35,631 nucleotides of DNA from a bacterium (GTDB taxonomy: Bacteria; Sysuimicrobiota; Sysuimicrobiia; Sysuimicrobiales; Kaftiobacteriaceae). A model generated the notes under the pieces. It saw nothing but the letters and a program-made list of their open reading frames with translations, was not told the DNA's origin and did no database searches. Of this stretch, positions 5,814 to 35,537 are shown piece by piece (positions within the stretch are counted from its first letter, which is position 1; each line of letters opens with the position of its first letter). Where the stretch lies: NCBI GenBank assembly GCA_036523465.1, contig DATDEG010000318.1, forward strand, positions 1 through 35,631. Direction: 5' to 3'. The position numbers and the translations under genes are program-made.

Positions 5814-6619
5814 GCTGGCGGCGGATCTGGGCGCTCAACCGGCGCCAGCTCTACGTCATGCGCCGCAGCTTCGCGCGCATCACCGACCTCTTCTACTGGC
5901 CGCTCGTAGATCTGTTCTTCTTCGGGTTTCTCTCCCTCTATCTCGGGCGCCGCGAGGGGGCGATCGGCATCGTCGGTCTGTTGCTCAGCGCCCTCATCCT
6001 CTGGGACGTCTTCTTCCGGGTCCAGCACGGCATCTCGATCTCGTTCCTCATGGAGCTGTGGACGCGTAACCTGATCAACCTCTTCGTCACGCCGATCACG
6101 GTGCGCGAGTTCCTTGCGGCGATGATGGTCTGGGGCCTCATCAAGATCTCGATCACCGCCACCCTGATGACCGCACTGGCCTACCTGCTGTACCGCTTCA
6201 ACCTGTTCGTCCTCGGTCTCAGTCTCGTGCCGCTGCTCCTCGCGCTGATCGTCTTCGCTTGGGCCGTGGGCACGGTCGTCACCGCGCTCATCCTCCGGTA
6301 CGGCCAGAGCGTCGAGGTACTGGCCTGGAGCCTGCCGTTCCTCTTCCAGCCGTTCGGGGCGGTCTTCTTCCCGCTGTCGGTCTATCCCGCGTGGCTGCAG
6401 GGGCCGCTCCAGCTGCAGCCGCTCCCGCACATCTTCGAGGCGATGCGCGCCGTCATCGCCGGGCGGGCGCTGCCGCTCGACCGTGTCGCCTGGGCGTTCA
6501 TCCTCGATGCCGCCTATCTCGCCATCGCCTTCGCCTTCTTCGGCTACATGTTCAGCCTGGCCCGCCAGCGCGGCTGCTGCTCAAGGTGCAGGAGTAGGCT
6601 GCGGCGGGTCATGAATTGA
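5810..6619 (+). CDS. ABC-2 type exporter permease
   Basis: 269-aa protein with six hydrophobic segments. GTGA overlap with the ATPase stop. Confidence 0.8.
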   Translation: MSWRRIWALNRRQLYVMRRSFARITDLFYWPLVDLFFFGFLSLYLGRREGAIGIVGLLLSALILWDVFFRVQHGISISFLMELWTRNLINLFVTPITVREFLAAMMVWGLIKISITATLMTALAYLLYRFNLFVLGLSLVPLLLALIVFAWAVGTVVTALILRYGQSVEVLAWSLPFLFQPFGAVFFPLSVYPAWLQGPLQLQPLPHIFEAMRAVIAGRALPLDRVAWAFILDAAYLAIAFAFFGYMFSLARQRGCCSRCRSRLRRVMN

Positions 6620-7086
6620 CCTCTGGGATGGGAACACGCGCGGCCCACGCGGCGGATTCCGAGGTGGCGCGCGCCTTTGGGGCGTACGTGCGCATGTTGC
6701 GGGAGAATGCCCGCGGCGCCGGGCGGGGGAAGCCGCTGCGCCAGCTCGCCCGCGAGACCGGGATCGCACCGAGCGTCCTCTCCCGGGGGGAACGCGGGCT
6801 GCAGGACCTGCGCCGGAGCGAATACATCGACCGTCTCGCCCCCCACCTCGGGGTCCGGCCGTCGATCCTCCGCCGGGTCGCCACGGTGATCACCGGCGAG
6901 GACGTCGAGCGCCTGCGGCCCAGCGCGCCGACGGAGGAGACCGGGACGCTCCCCTCACGCACGGCCGGGCGGATGCTGTGGACTAAGCTGCGACGCGAAC
7001 TGGATCGCCTCCAGGACGCGCCTCCAGAGACCATCGAGGCGCTCTTGAGCTACGTCGAGTTCCTCGCAACTCGCCGCAGACCGTGA
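6616..7086 (+). CDS. XRE-family helix-turn-helix transcriptional regulator
   Basis: HTH segment PLRQLARETGIAPSVLSRGERG. The TTG at 6616 overlaps the permease stop (TTGA). An alternative ATG at 6628 cannot be excluded. Confidence 0.6.
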   Translation: MTSGMGTRAAHAADSEVARAFGAYVRMLRENARGAGRGKPLRQLARETGIAPSVLSRGERGLQDLRRSEYIDRLAPHLGVRPSILRRVATVITGEDVERLRPSAPTEETGTLPSRTAGRMLWTKLRRELDRLQDAPPETIEALLSYVEFLATRRRP

Positions 7087-10524: not shown

Positions 10525-10573
10525 GGATCTACCCTTCGTGGGAACTGAGGGGGGACGCAGGCGCAGCGTTCCT

Positions 10574-10822
10574 TCAGACGCTCCCCGCCGCGGACATGAC
10601 GACCGCGCAGGTGTTCACCTTGGTTACGCCTTCGATGCGCTGGACCGCGGATGCCACCGCCGGGAAACCCTTCGTACTCTCCAGTTCGACGAGGGCGATG
10701 ACGTCGAACTCCCCCATCGTCACGTAGGCCTCTCTGACACCATCGATCTTGCGCACCTCGCGCGCGACCGCTGCGGGCGTGCTGCGGTCGAGCGAGATGA
10801 GGAGAAATGCGGTTTCGGTCAT
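10574..10822 (-). CDS. stand-alone Lrp/AsnC ligand-binding (RAM) domain protein
   Basis: The track ORF 10574..10969 is trimmed to the internal ATG at 10822. The 82-aa product is MTETAFLLISLDRSTPAAVAREVRKIDGVREAYVTMGEFDVIALVELES..., which is the RAM-domain pattern. No HTH is present. Confidence 0.7.
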   Translation of the reverse strand: MTETAFLLISLDRSTPAAVAREVRKIDGVREAYVTMGEFDVIALVELESTKGFPAVASAVQRIEGVTKVNTCAVVMSAAGSV

Positions 10823-10840
10823 GGAATCAGGGATTCCATG

Positions 10841-10869
10841 TTGACAGAAGGAACGCCTGTTCCTACGAT
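10841..10869 (+). promoter_or_regulatory. sigma-70-like promoter TTGACA-17 nt-TACGAT for the FMN-riboswitch operon
   Basis: Read directly: TTGACA 10841-10846 and TACGAT 10864-10869. It is positioned ~25 nt upstream of the riboswitch P1 helix. Confidence 0.5.
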
Positions 10870-10892
10870 AGCGACCAGCAGGACCGATGGCC

Positions 10893-11040
10893 CGCAGTCC
10901 TCTGGGGCAGGGTGCGACGGCCGCAGGGCCGTCAATTCCCGATCGGCGGTGACAGCCCGTGAGGTCCACGCTGTGGCGTGGATCATGGCCCGGCGGAATT
11001 CCGGGGTCGACGGTACAGTCCGTATGAGATGAGGACGGCG
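10893..11040 (+). promoter_or_regulatory. FMN riboswitch (RFN element) aptamer
   Basis: The conserved RFN blocks occur in order: GGGGCAGGGUG, AAUUCCCGAUCGGCGGU, AGCCCGUGA, a GCGUGGAUC hairpin, GGCGGAAUUCC, and GUCGACGGUACAGUCCGUAUGAGAUGAGGAC. P1 pairs 10893-10902 with 11031-11040 (one mismatch). It lies upstream of a riboflavin-type ECF S-component. Confidence 0.8.
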
Positions 11041-11130: not shown

Positions 11131-11649
11131 ATGAGGCCACGGGATCTCGCAGCGGCAGCGGTGTTCATCGCCCTGACGTTTGTCGTCACACGCTTCACGG
11201 TCATCCCCATCCCCGCGACGAAAGGGTACTTCAACTTGGGCGAGGTGGTGATCTACATCGCCGCGCTCGTATTCGGCCCGGTGGTCGGCGCCCTCGCCGG
11301 CGGCCTCGGCGCGGCGCTGGCTGACTATTTGGCCGCGCCGCAATTTGCCCCGTTCACGCTCGTCATCAAAGGAATCGAAGGGTTGCTGGTTGGACTACTC
11401 GCCGGCACGACAACGGCGTCGCGTCTGCGCGCGCTGCTCGTTGGGGGTCTCTGGCTGGTCGCCGGATACTTCGGTGCTGAGGTCCTCTTTGCCGGTCCGC
11501 TCGGTATCGCGCCCACGCCTGCCGCGGCGGTCGCCGCGGCGTCGACGGAAGTGCCGTTCAACGTCATCCAGGCGGTGGTCGGAATCCTCGTCGCGTTGGC
11601 GGTCGCAGCCCGTCTCCGCGCGCTGGCTCCCCAGCGGCTTCGTCCATGA
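11131..11649 (+). CDS. ribU: ECF transporter S-component, riboflavin-type (RibU-like)
   Basis: 172-aa polytopic protein. The motif GYFNLGEVVIYIAALVFGPVVGALAGGLGAALADYL...FTLVIKGIEG is typical of the ECF-type riboflavin S-component family. RBS CAGGAGG. It sits directly downstream of the FMN riboswitch. The symbol rests on that context. Confidence 0.7.
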   Translation: MRPRDLAAAAVFIALTFVVTRFTVIPIPATKGYFNLGEVVIYIAALVFGPVVGALAGGLGAALADYLAAPQFAPFTLVIKGIEGLLVGLLAGTTTASRLRALLVGGLWLVAGYFGAEVLFAGPLGIAPTPAAAVAAASTEVPFNVIQAVVGILVALAVAARLRALAPQRLRP

Positions 11650-12699: not shown

Positions 12700-12810
12700 C
12701 ATAGCAAGACAGGGGGAGCTCGGGAGAGCCGGGCTGAGAGTGCGACCGGACCGTCGCAGACCCGTTGGACCCGATCCAGGTAATGCTGGCGTGGGGACGC
12801 TTGGGAGGTC
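12700..12810 (+). promoter_or_regulatory. TPP (THI-box) riboswitch
   Basis: GGGGGAGC...GGGCUGAGAG...ACCCGUUGGACCCGAUCCAGGUAAUGCUGGCGUGGGGAC matches the conserved TPP aptamer core (GGGGUGC / CUGAGA / ACCUGAUCUGGAUAAUGCCAGCGUAGGGA). It lies upstream of thiT. Confidence 0.85.
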
Positions 12811-12889
12811 CAGGGCCGCCGGCGCCGATCGGGCGCGGCGGCTCGTCGCGTCTGTGGAGAAGTTATCGAAGGAGAGAGGGGACAGAGAG

Positions 12890-13438
12890 ATGGCCGTTAT
12901 CGCTGGCCGGGAGGGCTTGAGCAATCCGAGGACGATCGCCGAGATCGCCGTCGCCATCGCGCTGGCATCGGTCCTCCATCTCATCAAGCTCTGGGAGATG
13001 CCGCAGGGCGGATCGATCACCTTGGGCACGATGGTGCCCTTGTTCGTGCTCGCACTGCGCCGGGGACCCTTTGTGGGGATGATGGCGGGGGGGCTGTACG
13101 GGATCTTCGAGGGATGGATACTCAGCGGCGGCCGGTTCTTCGTCCACCCGGTCCAGGTGATCTTGGACTATCCACTGGCCTTCGCGCTCCTGGGGCTCGC
13201 CGGGTTCTTCCCCCGCTATCCCGCCTTTGGCGTCACGCTCGCCGCCGTGGCCAGGTATCTTGCGCACGTCGTCTCGGGCGCGGTGTTCTTCGCGCAGTAC
13301 GCACCGAAGGGACAGCCGATCTGGCTGTACTCGCTTGGCTACAACATCACATTCCTCGGTCCCGACTTTGCTCTGGCCATCGTCCTGACACTCCTGGTCT
13401 GGGAGCGGCTCTCGAGGATGTCCGCTCAGACGGCGTAG
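12890..13438 (+). CDS. thiT: energy-coupling-factor thiamine transporter S-component ThiT
   Basis: The track ORF is trimmed to ATG 12890, after the GAAGGAGAGAGGGG RBS. Blocks LRRGP, ILDYPLAF, FFAQYAPKG and YSLGYN match the ThiT (YuaJ) family. It lies downstream of the TPP riboswitch. Confidence 0.8.
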   Translation: MAVIAGREGLSNPRTIAEIAVAIALASVLHLIKLWEMPQGGSITLGTMVPLFVLALRRGPFVGMMAGGLYGIFEGWILSGGRFFVHPVQVILDYPLAFALLGLAGFFPRYPAFGVTLAAVARYLAHVVSGAVFFAQYAPKGQPIWLYSLGYNITFLGPDFALAIVLTLLVWERLSRMSAQTA

Positions 13439-18429: not shown

Positions 18430-18918
18430 ATGCGCGAATCGGTTTTCGAGCTGCTGACCCGCCTCGAGACGCTGCTCCAGCGTGGCGCCGCGGTCCCGCT
18501 CACAGACAAGAAGATGGTCGATGAACGCGAAGCCCTCGGGGTCATCGAGATGATCCGCGCCGTGCTCCCCGCGCAGCTCCGTGATGCGGAAGCACGCGCT
18601 GAGGAGGCCGAGCGAGTCCTCCGCGCCGCGCAGAACGACGCCCGGCGGATCGTGCTCGAGGCCCAGGCGACCGCCCGGCGCATGGTCGAGGAGCACGCGC
18701 TTGTGGCGGAAGCCGCGCAGCGCGGGGAAGATCTCACCGCCCGGGCGGAGCGCGACGCGCAGGCGGTGCGCGAAGGGGCCGACCAGTACGCGGCGCGCGT
18801 CCTCGCCGATCTCGAGCAGAGCGTTAGCCGTGTACTCGACACGATCCGGCGGGGGCGCGAAATGTTGAAAGGGTCCGGCGGGTCGGCCTATAATGAGCAG
18901 TCTGGCGAACGCAGGTGA
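18430..18918 (+). CDS. hypothetical coiled-coil protein (A/E/R-rich, ATP-synthase-b/G-like heptads)
   Basis: 162-aa ORF in the conserved coaD-yceD interval. Coding is supported by its position and tight spacing. No enzymatic motif was recognised. Confidence 0.5.
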   Translation: MRESVFELLTRLETLLQRGAAVPLTDKKMVDEREALGVIEMIRAVLPAQLRDAEARAEEAERVLRAAQNDARRIVLEAQATARRMVEEHALVAEAAQRGEDLTARAERDAQAVREGADQYAARVLADLEQSVSRVLDTIRRGREMLKGSGGSAYNEQSGERR

Positions 18919-19383
18919 GTGGTCGTGCGCGTGGATGTCAGGACACTGGGAATCGGCGAGAGCGTGACGGTGCCGGTGAGCGAGCCGATCGCGCTCCAGG
19001 TCGATGACCAGCGCGTTGACGCGCAGACGTCGGGAACACTGCGGGTGGATCGGACGAACCACGGCGTGCTGGTCCGAGGCCGTGTCCGCGCCCCAGTGCC
19101 GTTGACCTGCAGCCGCTGCCTCATCGCCTTCGAGGCGGCGCTGAACGCCGACGTGGAGGAGGAGTTGTCCATCGCTCCCGTCGGCGGCGCGGAGGGCGGG
19201 GAGCTGAGTGCGGAGGACTTCATCGGGTGGGTCGGGCCTACGCACGAAGTCGATCTCACGGAGATCGTCCGCCAGGACCTGCAGATGAACGTCCCGATGG
19301 CACCCCTGCACGCGGAGAGCTGCCGGGGATTGTGTCCGGTGTGTGGCGCGAACTGGAATGAACGCACGTGTGAGCATCATTGA
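18919..19383 (+). CDS. yceD: YceD/DUF177 family large-subunit rRNA accumulation protein
   Basis: 154 aa. C-terminal CxxxCxxC cluster (CRGLCPVCGANWNERTC). It sits at the canonical position immediately upstream of rpmF. Confidence 0.8.
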   Translation: MVVRVDVRTLGIGESVTVPVSEPIALQVDDQRVDAQTSGTLRVDRTNHGVLVRGRVRAPVPLTCSRCLIAFEAALNADVEEELSIAPVGGAEGGELSAEDFIGWVGPTHEVDLTEIVRQDLQMNVPMAPLHAESCRGLCPVCGANWNERTCEHH

Positions 19384-28832: not shown

Positions 28833-28878
28833 AAAGGGGGAGTTTGAGGGGGAACGCCGCGCGTGCGTTCCCCCTCAA
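28833..28878. repeat. palindromic intergenic element, copy B; likely bidirectional terminator between convergent genes
   Basis: AAAGGGGGAGTTTGAGGGGGAACGCCGCGCGTGCGTTCCCCCTCAA. A perfect 12-bp stem (28846-28857 with 28865-28876) surrounds the loop CGCGCGT. T-rich tails flank it on both strands. The stop codon of the minus-strand gene (28875-28877) lies inside the stem. Confidence 0.65.
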
Positions 28879-30176
28879 CCTTTCTTTCGGATCTCCACCC
28901 GTCCGATCCGCCGGCCGATCACGCTGTGTACGATGAACTCGAGCTCCCCGATGGTGAACCGCTCTCCAGGCTCCGGGATGCGGCCGAGGTGGTGGAAGAT
29001 GAACCCGCCGAGCGTGGCGGCGTCAGCGCCGCTGAGCTGGATCCCGAAGACCTCGTTGAGGGTCGGAAGGTCGATGGTCGCGTCGACGTCGATGCAGTTG
29101 GGCTGCGTCGCGTAGATCAACTTCGGCTGCGGCCGGGATTCGCCAGGGATCTCGCCGACGATCTCTTCTAAGACGTCCTCGATCGTCACGATCCCCGCCA
29201 TGCTCCCGTACTCTTCCAGGACGACCGCGAGCTGCGAATGGCCGGCCTGCATCTCTTCGAGAAGCTCTACGACCGGTTTGGTGTCGGGAACGTAGAGCAC
29301 CGGTCGCATCATCGTCTCGACGCGGGCCTCCGCGTGCCCTGCGGCTAGCTCCAGGAGGAGATCCTTCGCCCGTACCGCGCCGACGATCTGCTCGGTGGTC
29401 TCGCCGAAGACGGGGATACGGCTGAACCCGCGCTCGCGGACGACGGCCACCGCCTCGGCTACGGTGGCCATCCGGGAGACGCCGGCGACCGCGGTTCGGT
29501 GCACCATGATCTCGCCGACCGTCCGGTCGGTGAGCCGGAAGACTCGCCGGACGAGGGATTCCTCCTCGTGCTCGACCACCCCGGCCCGGCGGCTTTCGCC
29601 GATGAGCATGACCAGCTCGTCGCGGGCCAGCGCGACGTGGCGGCCGGGGGCGACCCAACCGAACGCACGGAGCGTCTTGTTCGCGAGCGTGTTGAGGGTC
29701 CAGATGAACGGTTTGAAGATTCGGAAGAAGGCCTCCGTCGGCGGAACGGTCGCTAGCGCAGTGGCCTCGGCGTTCCAGAGGGCAAGATTCTTGGGTGCTT
29801 GCTCACCGATGACGATATGCAGCGCGGTGATGAGGACGAACGCGACGGTCACGGCTACCGCGTGGGCGGCGGTGGCGCCCCAACCGGAGGGGAGGCCACG
29901 CAGCCAGGGCAGGATCAGTTGGGCCACGGCTGGCTCGCCGATCCACCCAAGGCCGAGGCTGGCCATCGTGATGCCGAGCTGGCTCGCGGCAAGGTATGGC
30001 TCAGGGTCCATGATAGCCCGCTGGACTGTCGGAGCGAAGCGCCGTCCCTCTTGAAGGAGTTGGGTAATGCGGGTCCGCCGTGACCTGACGATAGAGAACT
30101 CCGCGGCAACGAACAGTCCGTTAGCCGCCAGGAGCCCGAGCACCGCAAGGAGGTGGAGCGCTGCCGAAAGATCCAT
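28875..30176 (-). CDS. CNNM/CorC/HlyC-family transporter (DUF21-CBS pair-CorC_HlyC)
   Basis: 433 aa. N-terminal DUF21 with FVAAEFSIV, a central CBS pair, and a C-terminal transporter-associated domain. Confidence 0.85.
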   Translation of the reverse strand: MDLSAALHLLAVLGLLAANGLFVAAEFSIVRSRRTRITQLLQEGRRFAPTVQRAIMDPEPYLAASQLGITMASLGLGWIGEPAVAQLILPWLRGLPSGWGATAAHAVAVTVAFVLITALHIVIGEQAPKNLALWNAEATALATVPPTEAFFRIFKPFIWTLNTLANKTLRAFGWVAPGRHVALARDELVMLIGESRRAGVVEHEEESLVRRVFRLTDRTVGEIMVHRTAVAGVSRMATVAEAVAVVRERGFSRIPVFGETTEQIVGAVRAKDLLLELAAGHAEARVETMMRPVLYVPDTKPVVELLEEMQAGHSQLAVVLEEYGSMAGIVTIEDVLEEIVGEIPGESRPQPKLIYATQPNCIDVDATIDLPTLNEVFGIQLSGADAATLGGFIFHHLGRIPEPGERFTIGELEFIVHSVIGRRIGRVEIRKKG

Positions 30177-30246: not shown

Positions 30247-30276
30247 TTGACGCTCCAAATCAGACGAGGCTACAAT
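30247..30276 (+). promoter_or_regulatory. sigma-70-like promoter TTGACG-18 nt-TACAAT for the paa-like operon
   Basis: Read directly: TTGACG 30247-30252 and TACAAT 30271-30276, about 33 nt before the paaA start. Confidence 0.5.
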
Positions 30277-30308
30277 CGAATGCAGTTTTCGCGTACCATA
30301 GGGAGCGC

Positions 30309-31250
30309 ATGACCCAGCCCGCCGTTTCGCAGGACGATCCCGAACATCTCGCCGCCTTCGAAGCCACGCTGGCTTCCGGAGACCGCATCGAGGCGGGGGA
30401 GTGGATGCCCCAGCAGTACCGCTTCGAGTGCCTCCGCCTCATCCAGATGCACGCCAACTCGGAGCTCATGGGGGCGCTGCCGGAGCGTGAATGGATTCCC
30501 CGCGCTCCCACGCTGGCGCGGAAGATGGCCCTGGTGGCGAAGGTGCAGGACGAGGTCGGTCACGCCCAACTCCTCTACCGCGTAGCCGAGGATCTGGGCA
30601 AGCCCCGCCTCCAGATGCTCGAGGATCTGCTGAGCGGGAAGAGCAAGTTCCACAACGTCTTCCACTATCCCGCCGAGACCTGGGCCGACGTCGCGGTGAT
30701 CCAGGTCTTCGTCGACGGGGCGGCCATGCAAACCCAGGGCGCCCTACGCTCGTCGAGCTATGCGCCGTACGCACGGGTGTTGAAGCGGATCTGCTACGAA
30801 GAGGACTTCCACATCCGCTTGGGGATCGACGTCTACAAGGCCCTCGCCGAGGGGACACCGGGTCAGCGGGCCATGCTCCAGGGCGCGATCGACCGGTGGT
30901 GGCAGCCAATCATACATTTCTTCGGACCGCGGGACCAGGCGTCTCCGCATCTGGAGACGATGATGCGCTGGCGGATCAAAGTGAAGACGAACGACGAACT
31001 CCGGCAGCAATTCCTCCGGCAGTTCGTCCCGTTCATCACCGACTACGGCCTGCGCCTGCCCGACCCCGAGCTGAAGTGGAATGAGGGCGACCAGCGCTAC
31101 GACTATAGCGAGCCGGACTGGGAAGAGTTCAAACGCGTCATCCGCGGGGAGGGCCCGAAGACGGCGGTCCGCCTGCAGTTGCGCAACGACTACTGGCGGC
31201 GCCACCAATGGGTCCGCGAAGCCATGGAGGCATGGGGGGCGGCAGCATGA
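30309..31250 (+). CDS. paaA: 1,2-phenylacetyl-CoA epoxidase subunit A-like diiron oxygenase
   Basis: The track ORF is trimmed to ATG 30309. Blocks QMHANSELMGALPEREWIPRAPTL, AKVQDEVGHAQLLY and YEEDFH (diiron E/H ligands) match PaaA. Confidence 0.85.
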   Translation: MTQPAVSQDDPEHLAAFEATLASGDRIEAGEWMPQQYRFECLRLIQMHANSELMGALPEREWIPRAPTLARKMALVAKVQDEVGHAQLLYRVAEDLGKPRLQMLEDLLSGKSKFHNVFHYPAETWADVAVIQVFVDGAAMQTQGALRSSSYAPYARVLKRICYEEDFHIRLGIDVYKALAEGTPGQRAMLQGAIDRWWQPIIHFFGPRDQASPHLETMMRWRIKVKTNDELRQQFLRQFVPFITDYGLRLPDPELKWNEGDQRYDYSEPDWEEFKRVIRGEGPKTAVRLQLRNDYWRRHQWVREAMEAWGAAA

Positions 31251-31783
31251 TGAGCGAAGCGGCAGGGTTCACACCGATCGCGATCTACGAATACCTCGTC
31301 AAAGCGCGCGCCAAGCTGTGGGATTGGGTCCACCCACTGACGATGGAGCAGTACACGAAGGAGTTTCCCTTCGGGAAGAAGACGCTCCGAGATACGCTCG
31401 TCGAGATTCCGGTGGCGGAGTGGCTCTATGGGCTGCGCCTCGTCGGGGAGACCGTTCCGCCGCGCGACGAGCAGCCGTTCGTGAAGTACTATCAGACCGA
31501 CTTCGCCCCCCTGAAGAGCGCCTGGCGAGAGCTCGCCGACCGCACACGCCGCATCCTGCGGGAGGAACGGGACTGGTCTCGGTCTCTCGAGTACATCGTG
31601 CGGCCCCCGAACCGGCCCGCGGCACGGATCAGTGCGACAGCCGGCGGGATCGCCACCCAGATGATCTGTCACGAGGTCCATCATCGCGCCCAGGCGATGG
31701 CCATGTTGCGCCAGTTCGGGATCGCGGCGGAGAACCTGGACTACACCGCGCTCATGGTGACGAGGACCGAGCTCCCGGCATGA
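31247..31783 (+). CDS. DinB-family protein, paralogue 1
   Basis: 178 aa. ATGA overlap with the paaA stop. Four-helix-bundle DinB pattern with the C-terminal HEVHHRAQAMAMLRQ. Confidence 0.8.
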   Translation: MMSEAAGFTPIAIYEYLVKARAKLWDWVHPLTMEQYTKEFPFGKKTLRDTLVEIPVAEWLYGLRLVGETVPPRDEQPFVKYYQTDFAPLKSAWRELADRTRRILREERDWSRSLEYIVRPPNRPAARISATAGGIATQMICHEVHHRAQAMAMLRQFGIAAENLDYTALMVTRTELPA

Positions 31784-32316
31784 ACGATACCCCCGGCGGG
31801 TTGAATCCGGTACATCTCTACAGCTATCTGGCCAAAGCGCGAGAGCGGCTGTTTGACTGGATCCGTCCGCTGACGCTCGAGCAGTACACTCAGGAATTTC
31901 CGTTCGGGGTGAAGACGCTGCGGGACACACTTGTGGAGATCCCGCAGGCCGAGTGGACCTACGTGCAGCGCCTCCGGGGCGCCGCCGACATTCCCCCGTG
32001 GGAAGAGCGGCCCTTCGCTCGTTTCTACAAGACGGACTTCGCTCCACTGGAACCCGCCATCCATGCCCAAGTAGGGGAGACGACGAAGACCCTCCGGGAG
32101 ATCACCGATTGGGCTCGGACGGTCGAGTACAGCTTTGTGGATGAAGGGGAACGGGTCAGTATCCGTACGACGACCGGCGGGATCGCAGCGCAGCTGTGCT
32201 TCCATGAGATCCACCATCGCGCCCAGGCGATGGCGATGCTGCGTCAGCTGGGCGCGCCCGCGCAGGATCTGGATTACTCGTTCCTGATGTACGATATTGC
32301 GCGGCGCCCGGCCTGA
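31780..32316 (+). CDS. DinB-family protein, paralogue 2
   Basis: 178 aa, trimmed from the track ORF 31081..32316. ATGA overlap with paralogue 1. By eye a little over half of positions are identical to paralogue 1, including EFPFG.KTLRDTLVEIP and HEIHHRAQAMAMLRQ. Confidence 0.8.
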   Translation: MNDTPGGLNPVHLYSYLAKARERLFDWIRPLTLEQYTQEFPFGVKTLRDTLVEIPQAEWTYVQRLRGAADIPPWEERPFARFYKTDFAPLEPAIHAQVGETTKTLREITDWARTVEYSFVDEGERVSIRTTTGGIAAQLCFHEIHHRAQAMAMLRQLGAPAQDLDYSFLMYDIARRPA

Positions 32317-32350
32317 GCGGGGTCAGCTTACCATCCACGCCCCTGGATCG

Positions 32351-32374
32351 CGAGCACTTCTACGAGCACTTCTA
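32351..32374 (+). repeat. perfect tandem duplication CGAGCACTTCTA x2
   Basis: Read directly, in the 72-nt gap between DinB paralogue 2 and paaB. Confidence 0.85.
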
Positions 32375-32388
32375 GAGGAAGAGGCCTG

Positions 32389-32721
32389 ATGCCGGCGCTG
32401 TGGCAGTTGTTGGGCAAGCCGGAACGCGAAGCCGCCCACATCTACGCCGTCTTCCGGCAGGACACGAAGAACGATCCACACGTCCACGTCGGCGACGTCC
32501 ACGCGACGGATCCCGAGATGGCATTAGTGCTGGCCAAAGAGCAATTCACCCGGCGTGACCCGTGCGTGAACCTGTGGGTTGTCCCTTACCACCGGATCGG
32601 CGCCACCGCCTACGATGACGCCGCCATCTTCGAGCACACCACGGACAAGAGCTATCGGTTCGGGGGATCGTACCGGGAACAGCAGCGGGTCATGAAACCA
32701 CGCCGGCGAGAGAATCGGTGA
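32389..32721 (+). CDS. paaB: 1,2-phenylacetyl-CoA epoxidase subunit B-like
   Basis: 110 aa. YAVFRQ...HVGDVHA.D.EMAL..AKEQFTRR...LWVVP is the PaaB pattern. RBS GAGGAAGAGG. Confidence 0.85.
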   Translation: MPALWQLLGKPEREAAHIYAVFRQDTKNDPHVHVGDVHATDPEMALVLAKEQFTRRDPCVNLWVVPYHRIGATAYDDAAIFEHTTDKSYRFGGSYREQQRVMKPRRRENR

Positions 32722-32746
32722 GGTCCACGCTTCAGGTCGGGGACCG

Positions 32747-33535
32747 ATGACGCTCGCCTCGAGCCCGGCGCTCCAAAGCGCCGAGATCCGCGATGCCCTC
32801 ATCGCCTATCTGCTGGGGATCGCCGATGACGAGCTCATCATCGGCCACCGCCACTCCGAGTGGACGGGGTTTGCTCCCGACATTGAGTCCGACGTCGCGC
32901 TGTCGAGCATCGCGCAGGAGGAAATCGGACATGCGCGGCTCCTCTACGAGCGGGTGGCGGAACTCGCCGGGGGCGATCCCGACGCGCTGGCGTACAGGCG
33001 CGGGCCCGGCGCCTTCCGGAACGGCATCCTCGTGGAGCGGCCCAACGAGGACTGGGGATTCAGCATCGTCCGGATGTTCCTCTACGATCATGCCGACGTC
33101 ATCCGGTTGGATGCGCTCGCCGAAGGCGCGGTCGCTGCCATCGCCGATCTGGCTCGGACGCTGCGCCGCGAAGAACGGTATCATGTGATCTATGGAGAGG
33201 AATGGCTCCGCCGCCTCGCCCAGGCCACGGACGGCAGTCATCGTAAGACACAGGACGCGCTGAATGCTGCCTGGCCCGAGGCCGAAGTGCTCTTTTCGGC
33301 GGTGGAGGGCCAGGCTATGCTGAGAGAAGCGGGCGTGCTTCCCGTCGACGCGGCGGCGCAGGCACAGCGCTGGCGGGACGCCGCTCTCCTGGTACTGGGG
33401 GAAATAGGCCTCAAGACGCCTTCGTCGGTGACGAGTGTGTCGGACGGCCGACGAGGTGTCCACACGGAGCACCTGGCGGCGTTGCTCGAGGAGATGACTT
33501 CGGTCTCGCGGAGCGAGCCCGGTGCACAATGGTGA
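32747..33535 (+). CDS. paaC: 1,2-phenylacetyl-CoA epoxidase subunit C-like
   Basis: 262 aa. LLGIADDELIIGHRHSEWTGFAPDIESDVALSSIAQEEIGHARLLY is the typical PaaC N-terminal block. Confidence 0.8.
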   Translation: MTLASSPALQSAEIRDALIAYLLGIADDELIIGHRHSEWTGFAPDIESDVALSSIAQEEIGHARLLYERVAELAGGDPDALAYRRGPGAFRNGILVERPNEDWGFSIVRMFLYDHADVIRLDALAEGAVAAIADLARTLRREERYHVIYGEEWLRRLAQATDGSHRKTQDALNAAWPEAEVLFSAVEGQAMLREAGVLPVDAAAQAQRWRDAALLVLGEIGLKTPSSVTSVSDGRRGVHTEHLAALLEEMTSVSRSEPGAQW

Positions 33536-33556
33536 TGGACGGGTAGGCTTGGCCCG

Positions 33557-34099
33557 ATGGCGACACAGGTAGACACTCTCGAAAGGCGCGTGTGGGAGAT
33601 CCTCGAGACGATCGAGGACCCCGAGCTCCCCGTGTCCATCACGGACCTCGGGCTCATCCGCGCGGTCGAAGTGGACGGCCGCCGGGTGCACGTCACAATG
33701 CTGCCGACGTTCTCCGCCTGTCCCGCTATTGGCGTGATGCGGGAAGATATCCGCCGGCGCCTCGGCGCGATCCCTGAAGTGGACCACGTGGAGGTCGAGC
33801 TGTCGTTCGCCGAGCCCTGGACGATGGCACGGATGACCGAGCGCGGGCGGGAGCGACTCTTCAGCCACGGTGTCAGCGTTCCAGGGGGCCGTGGGGCAGG
33901 GGGGGTTGAACCCATTGAAGCCGGCGGCAAGGCTCGGTTGCACGTCGGTTACGCCATGACGGTTGGTGTTGAGTGTCCCTTCTGTGGCTCGACCAACACG
34001 CGACTAGAGAACCCATTCGGACCGACATTGTGCCGGGCGATCTACTATTGCTTGGACTGCAAGAATCCCGTCGAGCGGTTTCGACCACCGGCAGAGTAG
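33557..34099 (+). CDS. paaD: phenylacetate-CoA oxygenase subunit PaaD/PaaJ-like (DUF59 plus C-terminal zinc ribbon)
   Basis: DPELPVSITDLGLI (DUF59/MIP18 motif), TFSACPA, and the C-terminal CPFCGS...CRAIYYCLDCKNPVERF. Confidence 0.8.
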   Translation: MATQVDTLERRVWEILETIEDPELPVSITDLGLIRAVEVDGRRVHVTMLPTFSACPAIGVMREDIRRRLGAIPEVDHVEVELSFAEPWTMARMTERGRERLFSHGVSVPGGRGAGGVEPIEAGGKARLHVGYAMTVGVECPFCGSTNTRLENPFGPTLCRAIYYCLDCKNPVERFRPPAE

Positions 34100-34128
34100 G
34101 AAGACGGAAAGGGGAGTGTGGGTAGGAC

Positions 34129-34335
34129 GTGACTGCTGTGCGCGAGCAGACAGTCGACGCGAAGGGCCGCCCGATCGTCCCGGGGATGAAGGTGAAAGTG
34201 GCCGGTGAGAACGGGACGCAGGAAGGTACCATCGTGCGAGTCCTACATGACTACGGTGTCATTACCGTTGTCGTCCCCGAGGGCCGGGGTCAGGTCGAGC
34301 GTATGGTCCGTATCGTCGACATCGAGGCTATTTAG
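34129..34335 (+). CDS. small hypothetical protein (68 aa, beta-rich, SH3/KOW-like pattern)
   Basis: GTG-initiated ORF 30 nt after paaD. GC and codon usage match its neighbours. It has no Cys and no recognisable motif. Confidence 0.4.
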   Translation: MTAVREQTVDAKGRPIVPGMKVKVAGENGTQEGTIVRVLHDYGVITVVVPEGRGQVERMVRIVDIEAI

Positions 34336-34546
34336 ACGGCTCTTAAGGCGATCGAGTAGGGGGACCTCCATCCCCAACCAATCCCATTCATTCCGCAGAT
34401 TCCGATCTAAGGCTCTATGTAAAATGCGGGTTTGAGCAGTGTCTCTAAGTGCCTGGTTGGGTTGCTAGTTTACATAACGGACATTATCGGAAGTGAAGAC
34501 TTAGCCGATGTGAATCGTCCTGTTCTGGACAAGTTATCATCAAGGT

Positions 34547-34792
34547 ATGGCCCCAGATCCCGGTCTTCGTGTCCGGATCGCAGGCTACGCGATTGCCGTC
34601 CTCATTCAGATCGTGGCCTATGGCCTTATTGCGCTCGCCCTTGGGCTGGTGATGCGATCGCTTTGGGGCGACATTGCCGGGACGATTGTGGGTGCAGTCT
34701 ACGGAATTGCCGTGATCGTCGGTGTGACCGTCGCCCTCTATCGTGTCATCGTCAAAGGTGAAATGCCTAGTCCCAGGAATTGGTGGAAGTGA
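34547..34792 (+). CDS. small membrane protein (81 aa, two hydrophobic helices)
   Basis: ATG ORF. Two long hydrophobic stretches: IAGYAIAVLIQIVAYGLIALALGLV and IAGTIVGAVYGIAVIVGVTVALY. It is preceded by an atypically low-GC spacer and has a weak RBS. Confidence 0.45.
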   Translation: MAPDPGLRVRIAGYAIAVLIQIVAYGLIALALGLVMRSLWGDIAGTIVGAVYGIAVIVGVTVALYRVIVKGEMPSPRNWWK

Positions 34793-34811
34793 GCAATACA
34801 AGCTCGCCCCT

Positions 34812-35537
34812 CTACACTGTTGCCCGCCCTAGGAATCCGGCGAGAAATCCAGGCAATACTTTCAGCATGCCCATTGGGCCGGCACCTGCCTGCAGTCTGC
34901 TCCGATTGCTGAGATGGTCGGTAACAAGGTAGGTCTGCATGCCCACCTGCCGTGCGGCCGTGTCCTCGATCATGTCGTTGCCTACGAACAGACAATCGCG
35001 AGGGTCGAAGCGGATCGATGTGGCGACCTCTTGAAAGTACTCGGGATGTGGTTTGGAGAAGTGTGACGTCTCGTACGAGGTCACCAAGGCGAACGGGAGA
35101 TCGGCGATTCCGGCCCACTCCATCCGCGCGTGTATGGCGACGGACGGAAAGATTGGGTGAGTGGCGATGACGGCAGCGAGGCCATGTGCCAGAACGATCG
35201 ATACGGCCTCCCTGGCCGCCGGGTCTGGTGGTGCGGCCAACTCTCGGAGCTTTGGAAACTCCCGCGCATAGAACTCGGCAAGGTGCGGGGCCATCGCCTC
35301 TGCGCTCATCCCCACCGCCGCATAGAACGCTTCGTCGAATACCTGCTTGTTCGTCCGTTCGGGATCGCGATTCTCTGTCATCTTCCAGGTGGCCGCCAGC
35401 AGATGCGAGACGAACGCGTCCGGCGGGATCCAGCGGGCGAACCACGTGGCAAGGAGACGTGTGTACGCCTCGACGAACCGGGCCGTATCGATGTGCAGAA
35501 GCGTCCCGTCTAGGTCAAACAGCACGGCTCGAATCAT
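34812..35537 (-). CDS. HAD-superfamily hydrolase (subfamily IA-like)
   Basis: Motif I LFDLDGTL, motif II-like region VTS, and motif IV-like VGNDMIEDT. Confidence 0.85.
   Translation of the reverse strand: MIRAVLFDLDGTLLHIDTARFVEAYTRLLATWFARWIPPDAFVSHLLAATWKMTENRDPERTNKQVFDEAFYAAVGMSAEAMAPHLAEFYAREFPKLRELAAPPDPAAREAVSIVLAHGLAAVIATHPIFPSVAIHARMEWAGIADLPFALVTSYETSHFSKPHPEYFQEVATSIRFDPRDCLFVGNDMIEDTAARQVGMQTYLVTDHLSNRSRLQAGAGPMGMLKVLPGFLAGFLGRATV

Follow-up and report, generated by a model that had tools for sequence, protein, structure and literature searches.

The closest described systems to the locus presented here are the PaaABC(D)E systems of Escherichia coli and Pseudomonas and the "partial multicomponent" configurations without PaaE, which a 2026 survey has already described and which occur as PaaE-less paaABCD clusters in Bacillota, Deinococci, and archaea (PMC13186573). 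For E. coli PaaA, the catalytic and substrate-orienting residues have been named as E42, E49, K68, E72, H75, K103, F108, D126, E155, and H158; F108 orients the phenyl ring, K68 and E49 form a "lysine bridge," and K103 is a door residue (PMC4498308). The locus analyzed here is an operon of the paaABCD type from a bacterium of the phylum Sysuimicrobiota (contig DATDEG010000318.1 of assembly GCA_036523465.1), in which two genes of the DinB family stand between paaA and paaB and a gene for a 68-amino-acid (aa) protein, orf68, follows paaD. Throughout, the window is the whole stretch of 35,631 nucleotides (nt) that was analyzed.

What is new in this operon is a lineage-specific DinB module placed within PaaABCD, together with a gene that is swapped at the paaE position; the absence of paaE itself is ordinary. 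A preliminary description, made from the sequence of the window, had not recognized the layout, and indeed no paper linking DinB proteins with paa clusters was found in the searchable literature. Two published accounts of CSP1-3/Sysuimicrobiota make no mention of paa genes, phenylacetate, or low-molecular-weight thiols. Public metagenome-assembled genomes (MAGs) already annotate these open reading frames (ORFs) as PaaA and "DinB family protein." The DinB superfamily is, to our knowledge, very large and contains few members with a known physiological substrate, and we know of no characterized DinB/YfiT thiol S-transferase member that is encoded inside an oxygenase operon.

DinB is a fixed part of the operon in one clade

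Relatives of the locus were collected by scanning GTDB species genomes with an alignment of the DinB proteins and then by tblastn, and a metagenome scan with PaaA plus contig look-ups added further loci. As the gene calls in the fetched loci are crude (GC3-based), the assignment of layouts by PaaA identity rests on tblastn matches. The GTDB scan and tblastn identified the order paaA-DinB(-DinB)-paaB-paaC-paaD in 21 species-level MAGs, and the order paaA-DinB-paaBCD was found at 31 loci, the window included, all of which encode a PaaA at least 82% identical to that of the window. The neighborhood survey that the preliminary description had proposed consequently places DinB between paaA and paaB at every one of the 31 loci within this range of PaaA identity, with the 4-nt overlap of paaA and DinB (ATGA or GTGA) kept at 24 of them. 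DinB is thus a constant member of the operon, coupled to it in translation, and not an incidental insertion. No member of this clade has lost DinB while keeping paaABCD, and outside it no DinB-like ORF was detected beside PaaA by hmmsearch of the six-frame ORFs of 84 loci. The MAGs of these relatives are labeled "bacterium," "Armatimonadota bacterium," "Bacillati bacterium ANGP1," or Candidatus Geohabitans tengchongensis. Of these, the last is a named taxon of the phylum Sysuimicrobiota, which was previously called CSP1-3 (PMC11604079); judged by these related loci, the window most likely falls in this phylum as well.

When the loci are ordered by the identity of their PaaA to that of the window (Table 1), two variable slots become apparent, one between paaA and paaB, which holds zero to two DinB genes, and one after paaD, which is the position of paaE in E. 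coli. In the related genomes, the operon is found at the same housekeeping site, after fab-rnc-HIT-GGDEF-M28-CNNM, and this shared chromosomal site points to vertical inheritance rather than to a mobile catabolic island. Among the loci with the most distant PaaA proteins (53-59%), a TetR gene is a common upstream neighbor.

Table 1. Content of the two variable slots by identity of PaaA to the window PaaA
PaaA identity	Between paaA and paaB	After paaD
At least 85%	One or two DinB genes	orf68
82-84%	One DinB gene	138-aa Ddn/FDOR-like deazaflavin-reductase-type gene in 5 of 6 complete loci
77-79%	No DinB	464-aa FAD-dependent oxidoreductase, once followed by a RibD_C pyrimidine-reductase-like gene
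71-73%	No DinB	Nothing conserved; RibD_C-like gene often nearby on the opposite strand
53-59% (about 64 metagenomic loci from many phyla, plus Thermaerobacter and a planctomycete)	No DinB	No PaaE-like gene

The presence of two paralogues turns out to be the exception, with two DinB copies at only 5 of the 31 loci. In two of these five, the second copy comes from a different, more divergent branch. The paa-linked DinB proteins form essentially one clade in spite of their divergence to 45-73% identity, and within the tree of this clade DinB2 of the window represents a separate, old branch.

Other arrangements were observed around more distant PaaA genes. A Planctomycetes MAG (L086, 10990-13110) carries a 2.1-kb insertion at the paaA-paaB junction that comprises three paralogous ORFs of 79-87 aa and an ORF of 251 aa, none of them DinB-like, and a small ORF related to these is present at the same junction of locus L118. 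The paaA-paaB junction seems to tolerate insertions. At six loci of low G+C content (0.31-0.33; L120, L121, L131, L133, L157, and L158), a PaaA homologue of about 55% identity is followed directly by an IscA/HesB-like gene, and tblastn finds no paaB, paaC, or paaD at these loci.

The absence of paaE is normal for this PaaA branch

Neither a Pfam scan nor tblastn with the E. coli proteins revealed a PaaE-type reductase, a paaG/Z/J/F/H/K/I gene, or a regulator gene (PaaX/PaaR) in the 35.6 kb of the window, and the preliminary description is upheld in this respect. With E. coli PaaE/F/G/H/I/J/K/X/Y/Z as tblastn queries against 1.44 Mb of related loci, the only matches were paaG/H/J in Thermaerobacter and a few weak ones, with no PaaE among them. 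Similarly, no PaaE-like gene occurs in the surrounding 5 kb or so at any of about 110 PaaA loci (53-93% identity), a Pfam scan of ten genes downstream of paaD shows no reductase, and the 10-kb flanks of two related loci (L081 and L087) contain no paaK, paaG, paaZ, paaJ, paaF, or paaH. The words "orphan" and "lacking paaE," by which the operon had initially been set apart, accordingly describe no special trait: across the whole PaaA branch, paaE is normally absent and the operon normally stands alone.

The oxygenase core

Profile searches, as had been suggested in the preliminary description, place PaaA, PaaC, and PaaD above the NCBIfam equivalog cutoffs (TIGR02156, 382 bits with a cutoff of 280; TIGR02158, 233 bits with a cutoff of 133; and TIGR02159, 151 bits with a cutoff of 108, respectively), with PF01883 and PF23451 also matched by PaaD. 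PaaB is identified through Pfam (PF06243, 78 bits with a cutoff of 27, 8e-22), its score of 63 bits to TIGR02157 being under the 85-bit cutoff. The alignment of PaaA with the PaaA proteins of Klebsiella and E. coli, both of solved structure, extends over the full length (about 1e-84), and identity to the E. coli protein is 45%. In this alignment, all ten of the E. coli residues named above are conserved. The six diiron ligands (E. coli E42, E72, H75, D126, E155, and H158) correspond to E52, E82, H85, D136, E165, and H168 in the window protein, and the residues that position phenylacetyl-CoA are kept as F118, K78, E59, and K113. The most economical reading of this conservation is that the core would be a genuine phenylacetyl-CoA epoxidase or an epoxidase of a closely similar aryl-CoA.

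The PaaC subunit adds a further aspect. The six diiron-ligand positions, which read C/L/Q/D/A/H in E. coli PaaC with two kept, read E/E/H/D/E/H in the window protein. A comparison with the PaaC genes of the collected loci (L001-L167) shows the six positions to be retained in all 31 PaaC proteins at least 50% identical to that of the window, the Asp position being Glu in five, and about 60% of the more distant PaaC proteins also keep all six. It is conceivable from this pattern that PaaC may bind metal here and would thus not be purely structural, and a PaaC with a full ligand set calls into question the view, derived from E. coli, of this subunit as structural only.

The DinB proteins and their predicted metal site

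Both DinB proteins of the window pass the PF05163 cutoff of 23 (DinB1, 58.5 bits, 1.1e-15; DinB2, 60.7 bits, 2.2e-16) as well as that of PF12867, and no NCBIfam family matches them; the two are 53% identical. AlphaFold2 models DinB1 with confidence as a four-helix bundle (pLDDT 89.8), and the top 30 Foldseek matches of this model are all DinB/YfiT-like. The uncharacterized Bacillus subtilis protein YizA ranks best, followed by YfiT, DR_1065, and other DinB/YfiT proteins, with mycothiol S-transferase, BstA, ClbS, and the DinB domains of EgtB and OvsA at lower ranks. YizA is also the sole significant sequence match of DinB in the PDB, and its helix-2 His aligns with Glu53 of the window proteins.

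The HE[VI]HHRAQ motif shared by both proteins, as well as H29 in DinB1 and H12 in DinB2, are present as first described, and a heteromer had been argued from the different positions of these two histidines. That argument fails because the residues are unconserved (H29 in 1 and H12 in 12 of 27 paa-linked copies) and because the place of the canonical first metal ligand is taken by residue 53, a Glu in both paralogues. In a comparison of 89 family members, H142, E143, H145, H146, R147, and Q149 show little or no variation, while position 53 is Glu in 23 and His in 4 of the paa-linked copies and His in 34 and Glu in 25 of the other subfamily members. The alternation of Glu and His at this position, when combined with the invariant H142 and H146, points to a metal site composed of Glu/His53, His142, and His146. 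DinB1 is accordingly likely, on residue conservation, to have a metal site of E53, H142, and H146, a variant of the three-His triad.

The subfamily is small: among 1.84 billion cluster representatives, there are 853 matches at E values of at most 1e-3 and 29 at at most 1e-30. Approximately 59 of the best 150 matches measure about 335 aa and contain two complete DinB domains, each half carrying the HHRAQ motif (P0400, P0403, P0405, P0408, P0411, P0412, and about 50 more), and such tandem fusions are found, for example, in an Acidobacteriota MAG. This arrangement suggests that the two DinB domains cooperate, and since tandem fusions exist among distant relatives, heterodimerization of DinB1 and DinB2 is possible by analogy.

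orf68 and the slot after paaD

The gene orf68 is real and conserved. It is present at all 18 loci (window included) with a PaaA of at least 85% identity whose contig reaches past paaD, although at 4 of the 18 it lies one gene away from paaD. Its family comprises 181 members, all from the same lineages, with a mean column identity of 59-69% and about 13 invariant residues in the alignment, and its occurrence follows that of DinB and not that of the paa genes. The protein matches no family in Pfam, NCBIfam, or PHROGs, and the PDB offers no usable sequence match. The AlphaFold2 model (pLDDT 85.6) presents an SH3/KOW-like barrel, for which the top fold matches are NdhS proteins (E values of 0.015-0.05, TM scores of 0.65-0.79, and 25-27% identity over 56 columns); none of 34 family members scanned matches the Pfam NdhS family. 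SH3-like barrels are very common.

The content of the slot after paaD differs by subclade, as seen at L087 (12681-14904), at L093 and L094, and at L018, L019, L064, L091, and L092. Two of the subclade-specific fillers are flavoprotein-like, and the exchange of genes in this slot suggests that an electron-supply partner may have been replaced nonorthologously.

Operon signals and surrounding genes

All elements of the preliminary description, namely, the promoter, paaA, the two DinB genes, the gap, paaB-paaC-paaD, and the 68-aa ORF, were recovered at the positions first given for them (Table 2). Taken by itself, the promoter match is at chance level, with one TTGACG-18-TACAAT match in 5 kb and 0.9 expected; an identical TTGACG-18-TACAAT stands upstream of paaA in 18 of 35 related loci examined, where the flanking sequence differs. 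At loci L084, L095, L096, L098, L099, L101, and L102 (PaaA identity of 71-73%), a long inverted repeat, TGTGACG ... CGTCACA, is located between promoter-like hexamers and the start of paaA; this operator-like repeat is not present in the promoter region of the window.

Table 2. Features of the operon in the window
Feature	Position	Strand	Basis or detail
Sigma-70-type promoter	30247-30276	+	TTGACG 30247-30252, 18-nt spacer, TACAAT 30271-30276
AGGGAG ribosome-binding site of paaA	30300-30305	+	Sequence reading
paaA, catalytic diiron subunit, 313 aa	30309-31250	+	TIGR02156
DinB1, DinB-fold predicted metalloprotein, 178 aa	31247-31783	+	PF05163; start overlaps paaA stop (ATGA at 31247-31250)
DinB2, DinB1 paralogue, 178 aa	31780-32316	+	PF05163; start overlaps DinB1 stop (ATGA at 31780-31783)
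72-nt DinB2-paaB spacer	32317-32388	+	Tandem 12-mer plus paaB ribosome-binding site
paaB, bridging subunit, 110 aa	32389-32721	+	PF06243
paaC, 262 aa	32747-33535	+	TIGR02158
paaD, 180 aa, SufT/DUF59-like domain and Cys4 zinc ribbon	33557-34099	+	TIGR02159, PF01883, PF23451
orf68, SH3/KOW-like small protein, position usual for paaE	34129-34335	+	Conservation, fold model

Within the spacer between DinB2 and paaB, the 12-mer CGAGCACTTCTA is perfectly duplicated in tandem (32351-32374). The spacer measures 61-72 nt where the second copy is of the DinB2 type (the window, L001, and L002), and the gap between DinB and paaB is only about 10 nt at single-DinB loci. A regulatory RNA in the 72-nt spacer was considered and rejected (fold z score of +1.05, no Rfam match, and no conservation in L001 and L002).

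Downstream of orf68, no terminator is predicted. The 476 nt that follow (34336-34811) are of lower G+C content (0.57 in the bin 34001-35000 and about 0.67 elsewhere) and show no predicted terminator, tRNA, or Rfam match; an 81-aa ORF within this stretch (34547-34792) resembles a small two-helix membrane protein. At L081, by contrast with the window, a ClpP gene comes after orf68.

The Pfam scan covered 37 of about 40 plausible genes of the window, with two short ORFs at 18430-19383 left out, and a CNNM/CorC gene (28875-30176) was assigned via synteny with L081. The remainder of the window is of a housekeeping nature and includes ABC transporters, an aminotransferase, an oxidoreductase, riboflavin and thiamine transporters, Hsp33, RecG, RsmD, and CoaD, in addition to plsX-fabHDG-acpP-fabF, RNase III, a HIT protein, a CBS-GGDEF protein, an M28 peptidase, the CNNM/CorC protein, and a HAD hydrolase. 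An FMN riboswitch (10894-11039) lies upstream of the gene for an ECF riboflavin S component (11131-11649), and a TPP riboswitch (12702-12814) precedes the gene for a thiamine transporter of the ThiT/YuaJ type. Two ORFs are doubtful because they overlap these riboswitches: the ORF at 10538-11032, which overlaps the FMN riboswitch, is probably spurious, and that at 12740-13438, which overlaps the TPP riboswitch, probably has its true start further downstream.

A tentative function and its alternatives

The explanation that we tentatively prefer, to which we would give a little less than an even chance as a whole, is that of a vertically inherited, PaaE-less PaaABCD epoxidase operon in which DinB handles the epoxide and a partner encoded in the slot after paaD aids electron supply. 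The seven genes would form a promoter-driven, vertically inherited unit of an uncultivated bacterium, with a core that acts as an aryl-CoA (most likely phenylacetyl-CoA) ring epoxidase of the PaaABCD type without PaaE. In one subclade, a resident gene for a DinB-fold protein would have been inserted between paaA and paaB and kept in coupling with paaA, and this gene would then have been duplicated in a few lineages, that of the window among them.

In such a scheme, PaaA, and possibly PaaC, would first epoxidize the aromatic ring of a CoA ester, as the conserved residues suggest. Electrons would come from a donor other than PaaE, and a partner may be encoded in the slot after paaD, as it is an FAD oxidoreductase and an FDOR-like gene that fill this slot in the sister subclades. 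With its modeled barrel, orf68 could serve as a docking site for a soluble carrier, ferredoxin for instance. In a third and least certain step, DinB, made in step with PaaA, would intercept the ring-1,2-epoxide at its Glu/His/His site, through addition of a low-molecular-weight thiol, hydrolysis, or isomerization, and the outcome could be protection of the cell or a replacement of the PaaG/PaaZ steps. A functional link between DinB and the oxygenase is plausible because DinB has a constant, translationally coupled place in the operon. Action of DinB on the epoxide is a reasonable guess by analogy: the DinB-fold relatives YfiT, BstA, mycothiol S-transferase, and ClbS all act on electrophiles.

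Several observations weigh against this explanation. The same-site sister lineages (PaaA identity of 77-79%) and farther relatives (71-73%) have paaABCD without DinB. The phylum also contains many other DinB paralogues from the same subfamily that lie in unrelated gene neighborhoods, and the surroundings of 59 non-paa paralogues are heterogeneous with no consistent theme (neighbors include peptide ABC transporters, an Xaa-Pro peptidase, EamA, SQR-like, aldo-keto reductase, HemQ-like, and hydantoinase genes); the paa-linked copies themselves show no sharply distinctive residues. At locus L039, from Candidatus Calidihabitans tengchongensis, DinB and orf68 are adjacent (5980-6740) at the syntenic site, after fab-rnc-HIT-GGDEF, and paaABCD is absent from the 12.5 kb of this locus; its DinB has His at position 53 and clusters with a paa-linked DinB in the tree. 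Since L039 keeps DinB and orf68 without paaABCD, a strict dependence of DinB on the oxygenase is not established. Finally, the likeness of orf68 to NdhS is weak (E value of about 0.02), with KOW (NusG/Spt5) and Tudor domains matching almost equally well.

Much of this evidence would be accommodated if DinB and orf68 were passengers, that is, general electrophile or stress detoxification proteins that make use of the strong, probably constitutive expression of the operon and would be retained for this expression, not for any action on the oxygenase or its product. The arrangement at L039, the occurrence of multiple subfamily paralogues per genome beside peptide transporters, aldo-keto reductases, EamA exporters, and others, the DinB-free paaABCD operons of related lineages, and the unrelated insertions at the paaA-paaB junction in Planctomycetes (L086) and at other loci all speak for a gene of this kind. 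We nevertheless regard a passenger role as unlikely, though with an appreciable chance of being correct, as the exact position of DinB and its 4-nt coupling to paaA were kept while the protein drifted to about 45% identity, as DinB was repeatedly duplicated inside the slot, and as the clade with a PaaA of at least 82% identity shows no loss of DinB where paaABCD is kept.

It could alternatively be speculated that DinB is a component of the oxygenase itself and, with orf68 or the FDOR-like protein, serves as an electron-entry, effector, or metal-delivery/repair subunit that replaces PaaE-dependent functions. DinB occurs exactly in those lineages where small proteins (orf68 or FDOR-like) replace the large FAD oxidoreductase after paaD, and its coupling to the catalytic subunit suggests that the two are produced in matching amounts. 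Moreover, the predicted Glu/His/His site is similar to a 2-His-1-carboxylate iron site, a catalytic iron is bound by the DinB domain of the EgtB and OvoA enzymes (fold matches), and the top fold matches of orf68 are ferredoxin-docking NdhS subunits. The chance of this explanation nonetheless appears small, as an electron-carrier or oxygenase-effector role is known for no DinB-fold protein, DinB has no flavin or Fe-S motif, the presumed maturation role is already filled by PaaD, and L039 holds DinB and orf68 with no oxygenase. A more far-reaching reading, to which we attach a slim likelihood, would have DinB and the small protein encoded after paaD (orf68 or FDOR-like) act as an accessory module that replaces PaaE and/or PaaG, with electron entry via a docked soluble carrier, with DinB as the metal-dependent thiol transferase or hydrolase that deals with the epoxide, and with PaaC as a second active center.

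The proposal that the PaaABCD core acts in housekeeping or biosynthesis on some acyl or aryl thioester other than phenylacetyl-CoA, with DinB in the same pathway, would fit the conserved housekeeping location with no adjacent regulator or other paa gene, the very strong conservation of PaaA in the phylum (71-93% identity), the complete PaaC ligand set, and the wide occurrence of stand-alone TetR-paaABCD modules, but it is quite improbable given that PaaA exceeds the equivalog cutoff and keeps Phe108, the Lys68 "lysine bridge," and the door residue Lys103 (E. coli numbering) and that in Thermaerobacter, which is the closest of the cultivated relatives found (59% identity), genes of the paaG/H/J type come after paaABCD.

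Significance

With DinB coupled to a well-understood oxygenase subunit, a concrete substrate can be hypothesized for a DinB protein, namely, the toxic ring-1,2-epoxyphenylacetyl-CoA. Stand-alone paaABCD modules without PaaE are common, and the swapping of the gene at the paaE position between subclades bears on how such oxygenases are supplied with electrons. If the accessory-module explanation were true, it would represent a new architecture among bacterial multicomponent monooxygenases and would provide the first defined physiological substrate for this DinB subfamily. Because the phylum, which is abundant in soil and hot springs, is uncultivated, the payoff depends on heterologous biochemistry.

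Comparison with known systems

For orf68, the best structural match is NdhS (CRR31) of cyanobacterial and chloroplast NDH-1, a cofactor-less barrel of about 60 aa on a redox complex; the match is not significant, and orf68 differs in being missed by the Pfam NdhS profile. For the DinB proteins, ClbS, the cyclopropane hydrolase of colibactin self-resistance, offers a DinB-like fold (6anr) and a chemistry in which a strained, electrophilic three-membered ring is opened. That match is weak (E value of 0.08, TM score of 0.5), and ClbS belongs to another subfamily with no need for such a metal triad, so that the analogy is one of chemistry only. B. subtilis YfiT, Staphylococcus aureus BstA, the Mycobacterium tuberculosis mycothiol S-transferase, and YizA share with the window DinB proteins the four-helix bundle and HxxxH, whereas their first His ligand is Glu in the window proteins and identity is at most 21%; the likeness to the thiol S-transferases rests on fold (1rxq, 5wk0, and 8f5v).

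The PaaE-less "partial multicomponent" clusters, of which Thermaerobacter subterraneus provides an example, are like the window in that paaABCD occurs without a gene for an FNR-type reductase, and the same holds for the about 64 metagenomic loci with PaaA proteins of 53-59% identity. These clusters differ in usually having a TetR/PaaR gene upstream and sometimes paaG/H/J downstream, and they contain neither DinB (by hmmsearch) nor orf68. Compared with the PaaABC(D)E systems of E. coli and Pseudomonas, the window is without PaaE, nearby paa genes, and a regulator, has DinB between paaA and paaB, and has orf68 in place of paaE. It nevertheless encodes orthologues of PaaA, PaaB, PaaC, and PaaD in the same relative order, with a PaaA that keeps every diiron ligand and substrate-positioning residue and a PaaC that keeps six ligand positions where that of E. 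coli keeps two.

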